Below are positions 12,411 through 12,524 of a stretch of DNA of 64,000 bases, one piece after another (position 1 is the first letter of the stretch; every line of letters starts with the position of its first letter). The notes under the pieces were generated by a model, which saw only the letters and a program-made list of their open reading frames with translations, did not search any database and was not told where the DNA came from. A program made the position numbers and the translations under genes. Source of the DNA: Escherichia coli (lineage in GTDB: Bacteria; Pseudomonadota; Gammaproteobacteria; Enterobacterales; Enterobacteriaceae); assembly GCF_024700885.2 (NCBI RefSeq), contig NZ_CP117016.1, one strand, 5' to 3'.

Positions 12411-12437
12411 GAACTCTTTCTTCCCAGGCGAGTCTGA
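12411..12437 (+). promoter_or_regulatory. sigma-E type promoter of micA
   Basis: -35 gaactc (12411-12416), 16-nt spacer, -10 tctga (12433-12437), 6 nt before the micA 5' end. Confidence 0.6.
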
Positions 12438-12443
12438 GTATAT

Positions 12444-12517
12444 GAAAGACGCGCATTTGTTATCATCATCCCTGAATTCAGAGATGAAATTTTGGCCACT
12501 CACGAGTGGCCTTTTTC
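12444..12517 (+). ncRNA. micA: sRNA MicA (SraD), antisense regulator of ompA/phoPQ mRNAs
   Basis: Matches remembered MicA sequence GAAAGACGCGCATTTGTTATCATCATCCCTGAATTCAGAGATGAAATTTTGGCCACTCACGAGTGGCCTTTTT; terminator hairpin 12494-12511 plus T-tract; lies in the luxS-gshA gap on the opposite strand. Confidence 0.9.
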
Positions 12518-12524
12518 TTTTCTG

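Follow-up and report, generated by a model that had tools for sequence, protein, structure and literature searches.

The window, by which we mean the whole 64-kb stretch of Escherichia coli DNA that was analysed, carries a small RNA gene between luxS and gshA, both of which are encoded on the other strand. The features of the locus are as follows, with positions numbered along the window.

11860-12375, minus strand: luxS (S-ribosylhomocysteine lyase), divergent from the RNA gene (NCBIfam NF002602 equivalog, 349 bits; RefSeq annotation)
12376-12707, minus strand: putative long luxS 5' leader (P1 transcript), placed by transfer of published K-12 coordinates
12394-12404, plus strand: AT-rich element upstream of the -35 element (T-tract at 12394-12399, A-run at 12400-12404)
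12411-12416, plus strand: -35 element GAACTC (wider context tGAACTcTT, 12410-12418)
12417-12432, plus strand: spacer of 16 nt, fixed in length and variable in sequence
12433-12437, plus strand: -10 element TCTGA, preceded by G at 12432
12438-12443, plus strand: discriminator GTATAT, 6 nt, followed by the +1 G at 12444
12444-12516, plus strand: MicA small RNA (sRNA), 73 nt as annotated in MG1655, with +1 at the G at 12444
12450-12467, plus strand: single-stranded target-pairing region, MicA nt 7-24
12467-12486, plus strand: stem-loop 1, nt 24-43, 7 bp and a single bulge per side (ViennaRNA and Rfam consensus)
12487-12493, plus strand: A/U-rich linker AAAUUUU, unpaired in the predicted fold
12494-12521, plus strand: Rho-independent terminator, with a 7-bp G+C-rich hairpin (12494-12511) and the T-run TTTTTCTTTT (12512-12521)
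12525-14081, minus strand: gshA (glutamate-cysteine ligase), convergent with the RNA gene (TIGR01434 equivalog, 916 bits; RefSeq annotation)

The stretch 12411-12521 reads gaactc tttcttcccaggcgag tctga gtatat GAAAGACGCGCATTTGTTATCATCATCCCTGAATTCAGAGATGAAATTTTGGCCACTCACGAGTGGCCTTTTTCTTTT and comprises a promoter, an RNA and its T-tail, the RNA proper being confined to 12444-12516. A first-pass annotation had reported MicA with its terminator at this place, and had named a mismatch on alignment to the annotated micA gene as the observation that would speak against it. When the 73-nt micA gene of E. coli K-12 MG1655 (b4442) was aligned to the window, it matched 12444-12516 (+) at 100% identity, with no mismatch; in the MG1655 record this ncRNA lies between luxS (b2687) and gshA (b2688), on the strand opposite both. 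The covariance model search proposed as a further check was in agreement. In an Rfam 15 scan of positions 9000-16000, the MicA family (RF00078) was matched at 12444-12515 (+) with 83.9 bits (E 1.5e-12; gathering score 41), far above what chance would give, and the window copy matched all of model positions 1-75 of 75. Across the whole 64-kb window, RF00078 was the sole non-tRNA Rfam family above threshold.

A tRNA cluster lies at 15359-16120 (-) and is made up of five genes, four of which have an identical score of 67.1 bits. Two of these four, seen in alignment, are identical in sequence and correspond to tRNA-Arg with anticodon ACG, while the fifth gene of the cluster is longer (16031-16120). 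The spacer between the third and fourth copies (15814-15924) holds a sub-threshold match to RtT, which scores 30 bits where the gathering score is 45.

The agreement with K-12 extends beyond the RNA itself. The luxS-gshA intergenic region is identical throughout to that of K-12, and no difference is seen in a 390-nt segment (12254-12643) that reaches from the 5' end of luxS across the intergenic region into the 3' end of gshA. Over the compared 2.8 kb (2801 positions), 41 sites differ between K-12 and the window, all in the flanking genes and outside 12254-12643, indicating that the host strain is not K-12; the intergenic region is the best-conserved part of the comparison. Set against MicA (SraD) of K-12, the locus has the same 73-nt sequence, promoter, terminator, flanking genes and spacing. 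The difference-free segment fits the overlapping constraints that micA, its promoter and an antisense luxS leader would impose.

Within the species, the 117-nt stretch made up of promoter and RNA (12405-12521) was matched in 5423 of 5426 complete E. coli genomes, and at 99% identity or above in 5420 of the 5426. The first-pass annotation had described MicA as expected for E. coli, and this expectation is borne out by a known gene in its normal context that is near-universal in complete genomes of the species. The feature is an already known, ordinary micA gene in its usual place, and there is nothing surprising about it.

Relatives of the locus were collected with an exact-pattern scan using MicA nt 5-27 on one genome per species, which yielded at least 120 loci. 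The loci listed include Escherichia, Citrobacter, Enterobacter, Klebsiella, Yersinia, Serratia and Pantoea, as well as Erwinia, Dickeya, Pectobacterium, Edwardsiella, Hafnia and others. Among the matches listed, both neighbours lie on the minus strand wherever the flank on their side is long enough: luxS upstream in 117 of 117 loci, gshA downstream in 113 of 113. The order luxS(-)/micA(+)/gshA(-) holds in each of the 110 loci of other Enterobacterales with flanks on both sides, and the 10 loci flanked on one side only show an arrangement that agrees with it, again among the matches listed.

Upstream of the RNA, the first-pass annotation had read gaactc-N16-tctga as a sigma-E promoter, and the elements fit this description, with the 16-bp spacer and 6-bp discriminator published for K-12 (PMC1851643). 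The bare pattern GAACTN-N15-17-TCTGA is not significant in the window, with one match against 0.16 expected and at least one match in 16 of 100 shuffles, and for this reason a phylogenetic footprint was used instead as promoter evidence. For this purpose, the 60 nt upstream of the RNA were anchored on +1 and compared without gaps in 106 distinct sequences from other Enterobacterales, among the matches listed. In these 106 sequences, A-A-C at -32 to -30 (12412-12414), T-C at -11/-10 (12433-12434), A at -7 (12437) and T at -1 are invariant. The T residues at -27/-26 are found in 97-99% of them, G at -12 in 94%, and the T-tract (T at -50 to -45) in 85-100%. Spacer positions, by contrast with its fixed length, hold 0.1-0.9 bits of information at most positions (0.1-0.8 from -25 to -17) in the same set.

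The resulting layout has an AT-rich upstream element, an AAC core, N16, a TCTGA element with an invariant C, and N6. It matches what has been published for the micA promoter (PMC1851643), where the 'AA' of the -35 element is fully conserved, the C of the -10 box never varies, spacer and discriminator measure 16 and 6 bp, and AT-rich sequence is conserved upstream of the -35. On sequence grounds, the conserved upstream pattern is the footprint of a sigma-E-type promoter, the case for which is made by its position relative to +1 and by its conservation. In K-12, MicA is induced by rpoE overexpression and is undetectable in a delta-rpoE mutant (PMC1851643), and its sigma-E dependence has also been covered in review (PMC4618604). 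Identity to the K-12 sequence suggests that micA would likewise be sigma-E-dependent in the host strain.

Some variation at these elements can be seen in individual genomes. Two Dickeya loci (L030 and L059) carry GTCATA at the -10 in place of GTCTGA or GTCTTA, with T-C at -11/-10 kept. E. coli strain Ec55 shows intergenic differences at 12400, in the upstream AT-rich region, and at 12420, in the spacer, and no difference from the window in the promoter boxes or the RNA. In E. coli p10B (L123, NZ_CP103758.1, 1233-3000), a clinical blood isolate, ISEcp1 and a spacer are inserted exactly at the micA -10 box, at a site corresponding to window 12432-12437, with TCTGA duplicated on both sides. The insert also holds a sequence (MVKKSLRQFTLMATATVTLLL...) that we take to be the start (~63 nt) of a blaCTX-M gene. 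The insertion has moved the -35 element ~1.8 kb from micA, with the outward end of the IS facing micA, and it interrupts the long luxS leader. Sigma-E has probably lost control of MicA in this strain.

The predicted MicA fold (ViennaRNA) has an energy of -20.5 kcal/mol and a z-score of -2.9 against shuffles, and it displays the organization known for MicA: an open, single-stranded 5' end and two stem-loops joined by an A/U linker, the second stem-loop being the terminator. In a structure alignment of 92 distinct homologues among the matches listed, the 14 proposed pairs (1288 cells) are kept in 98.7% of cells, and compensatory changes are seen in 4 pairs and 17 of the 1288 cells. Shuffles never reach the observed pairing values, and 3' partners slid out of register pair in only 28-52% of cells. 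In the same 92 homologues, the helix of stem-loop 1 is 97.6-100% paired and has three pairs with compensatory changes, while the terminator stem GGCCA/UGGCC is invariant and its innermost pair varies between A-U, U-A and G-C. Since most pairs of the stems never vary, covariation support for the two hairpins is real but modest. Hfq protection of the segment that joins the MicA stem-loops has been reported (PMC4618604). The sequence features of this type are present in the window, as the AAAUUUU linker and the terminator U-tail, with Hfq binding itself known from the literature (PMC4618604). The two Dickeya loci mentioned above (L030, L059) have a far longer terminator hairpin, with a stem region 8 nt longer.

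An ATG-initiated ORF of 48 codons is listed at 12442-12588 (+), and the locus might accordingly be taken to encode a small protein, a reading to which we attach almost no probability. With its first base 2 nt ahead of the mapped +1, the ATG would fall outside the transcript, and the A of this ATG is found in only 75% of homologous upstream sequences among the matches listed. Furthermore, homologues carry loop indels of 1, 2 and 4 nt that shift the frame, and the ORF runs through the terminator into antisense gshA.

The gshA stop codon (12525-12527) lies 8 nt past the annotated MicA 3' end and 3 nt past the end of the T-run, and the claim that MicA converges on the gshA 3' end and stops a few nucleotides from its stop codon stands on these distances. 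With a hairpin placed just past the gshA stop codon, and an 8-nt gap that fits no other terminator, the hairpin and T-run could be conceived as merely a gshA terminator, possibly bidirectional, preceded by intergenic DNA that resembles MicA by chance. Such a coincidence is exceedingly remote. In the terminator scan, hairpin and T-run were called on the plus strand only and none on the minus strand, where the hairpin is followed by AAAATTT and not by a T-run. The Rfam match, in addition, spans all 75 positions, including 50 nt upstream of the hairpin, and these 50 nt, together with a promoter placed exactly 6 nt before +1, are conserved across Enterobacterales.

Reading the hairpin as the terminator of micA leaves the end of the gshA transcript to be considered. 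There being no minus-strand terminator within the 8 nt between the gshA stop codon and the MicA 3' end, the gshA mRNA would have to stop at the sequence complementary to the hairpin or else continue into micA, and a possible overlap of the gshA 3' UTR with micA has been raised before (PMC2956633). It is conceivable, though in our estimation improbable, that the terminator hairpin doubles as a gshA 3' stabiliser, and that MicA or the collision with sigma-E-driven micA transcription modulates gshA 3' end formation or stability. If true, an effect of the hairpin or of MicA on gshA would link envelope stress to glutathione synthesis.

The 5' end of the RNA carries the target-pairing region. MicA nt 7-24 form with positions -22 to -5 of K-12 ompA, which cover the Shine-Dalgarno region, an interrupted duplex of 18 nt (-21.7 kcal/mol), and this is the best site across the 163-nt leader; none of 2000 shuffled seeds pairs as well with ompA. 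The target used was that of K-12, the host strain's own ompA lying outside the window. The seed-ompA duplex reproduces the known MicA-ompA interaction. Plasmid-borne MicA has already been reported to repress OmpA in K-12. A sprawling duplex of full-length MicA with the whole ompA leader (-44.5 kcal/mol) was discarded, since 6 of 500 shuffles equalled it and intramolecular folding is ignored in that calculation. In the 92 homologues among the matches listed, nt 1-25 are invariant save for positions 2 and 16; the conservation of nt 5-27 is partly forced, because these positions were the search pattern, and that of the flanks is not. Further targets, such as phoPQ, have been described (PMC4618604).

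At the 3' edge of the seed, alignment columns 26-30 contain one or two extra TCA or TCTCA units (ATCATCATCATCC...) in several genera (e.g., L022, L024, L025, L080, L081, L110, L118, L119, L121). These extra units are a repeat-length polymorphism in the target-pairing region, and repeats at the seed edge have been mentioned in review (PMC4618604).

The divergent neighbour, luxS, was not mentioned in the first-pass annotation; its long leaders cross micA in the antisense direction. The luxS start codon (12373-12375) lies 68 nt upstream of the MicA +1. In the work of Udekwu, the luxS P1 transcript starts within the 3' end of gshA, at a G in position -332 relative to the luxS start codon (PMC2956633). 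Transferred to the window, this position falls at 12707, which is C on the plus strand and G on the minus strand, and a leader starting there would run antisense across all of micA. Processing of the long luxS leaders in K-12 is both MicA-dependent and RNase III-dependent, and the proximal 5' end of luxS shares 14-15 nt with MicA (PMC2956633), an overlap that would place this end near 12457. A sigma-70-like arrangement on the minus strand (ATGATA-18-TATACT, 12466-12437) was considered as a luxS promoter and rejected, given that it predicts a start near 12430, outside micA, as opposed to the published end at ~12457; sigma-70-like matches of this kind are expected by chance at 0.5 per region.

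These observations raise the question of whether micA acts chiefly in cis, as an antisense RNA to the luxS 5' leader working through RNase III, and not in trans on outer-membrane protein mRNAs. The divergent luxS gene, a published P1 start that lies beyond micA and yields a leader fully complementary to MicA, the MicA- and RNase III-dependent processing demonstrated in K-12 (PMC2956633), and the linkage of luxS and micA in every locus examined among the matches listed are all in line with such a role. A cis-antisense RNA, however, needs no conservation beyond that of the overlap, and yet the 5' 25 nt of MicA are near-invariant (in part because the search forces it) across genera with diverged flanks, and they match a site in the unlinked ompA gene. 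In the literature, moreover, the luxS effect is an extra role of MicA and not its sole one (PMC2956633, PMC4618604). A predominantly cis-acting micA is in consequence very improbable; antisense action on luxS is likely as an additional role of MicA and unlikely as its only one.

The three alternatives weighed above are contradicted by a promoter and a 5' 50 nt that are both conserved, by complementarity to the unlinked ompA and by indels among homologues of lengths other than multiples of three. The locus is best explained as the micA gene of a non-K-12 E. coli strain, encoding a sigma-E-driven sRNA of about 72 nt that would repress ompA and other mRNAs and also act as an antisense RNA on luxS, an explanation to which we assign a probability of roughly 0.97. 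No sequence evidence against it was found. Identity, structure, promoter anatomy and conservation, synteny and ompA complementarity were all observed directly in the present analysis, and sigma-E dependence, Hfq binding and target repression would carry over from the literature.

In the mechanism that this explanation implies, RNA polymerase with sigma-E would start transcription at the G at 12444 under envelope stress, by way of GAACTC (-35) and TCTGA (-10), and transcription would end at the hairpin and U-run (12494-12521), yielding the sRNA of about 72 nt. With the help of Hfq, which would sit on the A/U linker and the terminator tail, the invariant, unstructured nt 7-24 would then pair with ompA and other mRNAs at their ribosome-binding regions, and this pairing would block translation and promote mRNA decay, thereby lowering the synthesis of outer-membrane proteins. 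As an RNA antisense to the long luxS leaders, MicA may also pair with them in cis and direct their processing by RNase III.

Two groups of known systems provide a frame for this arrangement. RybB and MicL are, like MicA, sigma-E-dependent Hfq-binding sRNAs of the envelope stress response, and they follow the same regulatory logic: transcription from a sigma-E promoter yields an RNA with a 5' seed and an Hfq-dependent terminator module, and this RNA represses outer-membrane protein or lipoprotein mRNAs (PMC4618604). Their sequences and loci, in contrast, are unrelated to those of MicA, and only RF00078 was matched in the window. The CopA/CopT system of plasmid R1 comprises a cis-encoded antisense RNA that is processed together with its target by RNase III. 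MicA resembles it in being fully complementary to the long luxS leaders, in a duplex that is cut by RNase III (PMC2956633), but its main documented targets are unlinked mRNAs with which it pairs imperfectly and through Hfq (PMC4618604).

MicA being a textbook sigma-E-dependent Hfq-binding sRNA, the relevance of the locus is limited to annotation completeness. In the PGAP-annotated RefSeq E. coli genomes sampled (H1-H26), there is either no feature under the micA match or only luxS and gshA. The curated MG1655 record carries the ncRNA micA and the sampled PGAP records do not, which indicates that standard annotation omits the sRNA in those genomes, and it will escape any scan based on such annotation or on ORF tracks. 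Once micA is marked, the luxS-gshA gap will not be taken as empty, and luxS deletions or insertions in this gap can disturb MicA.
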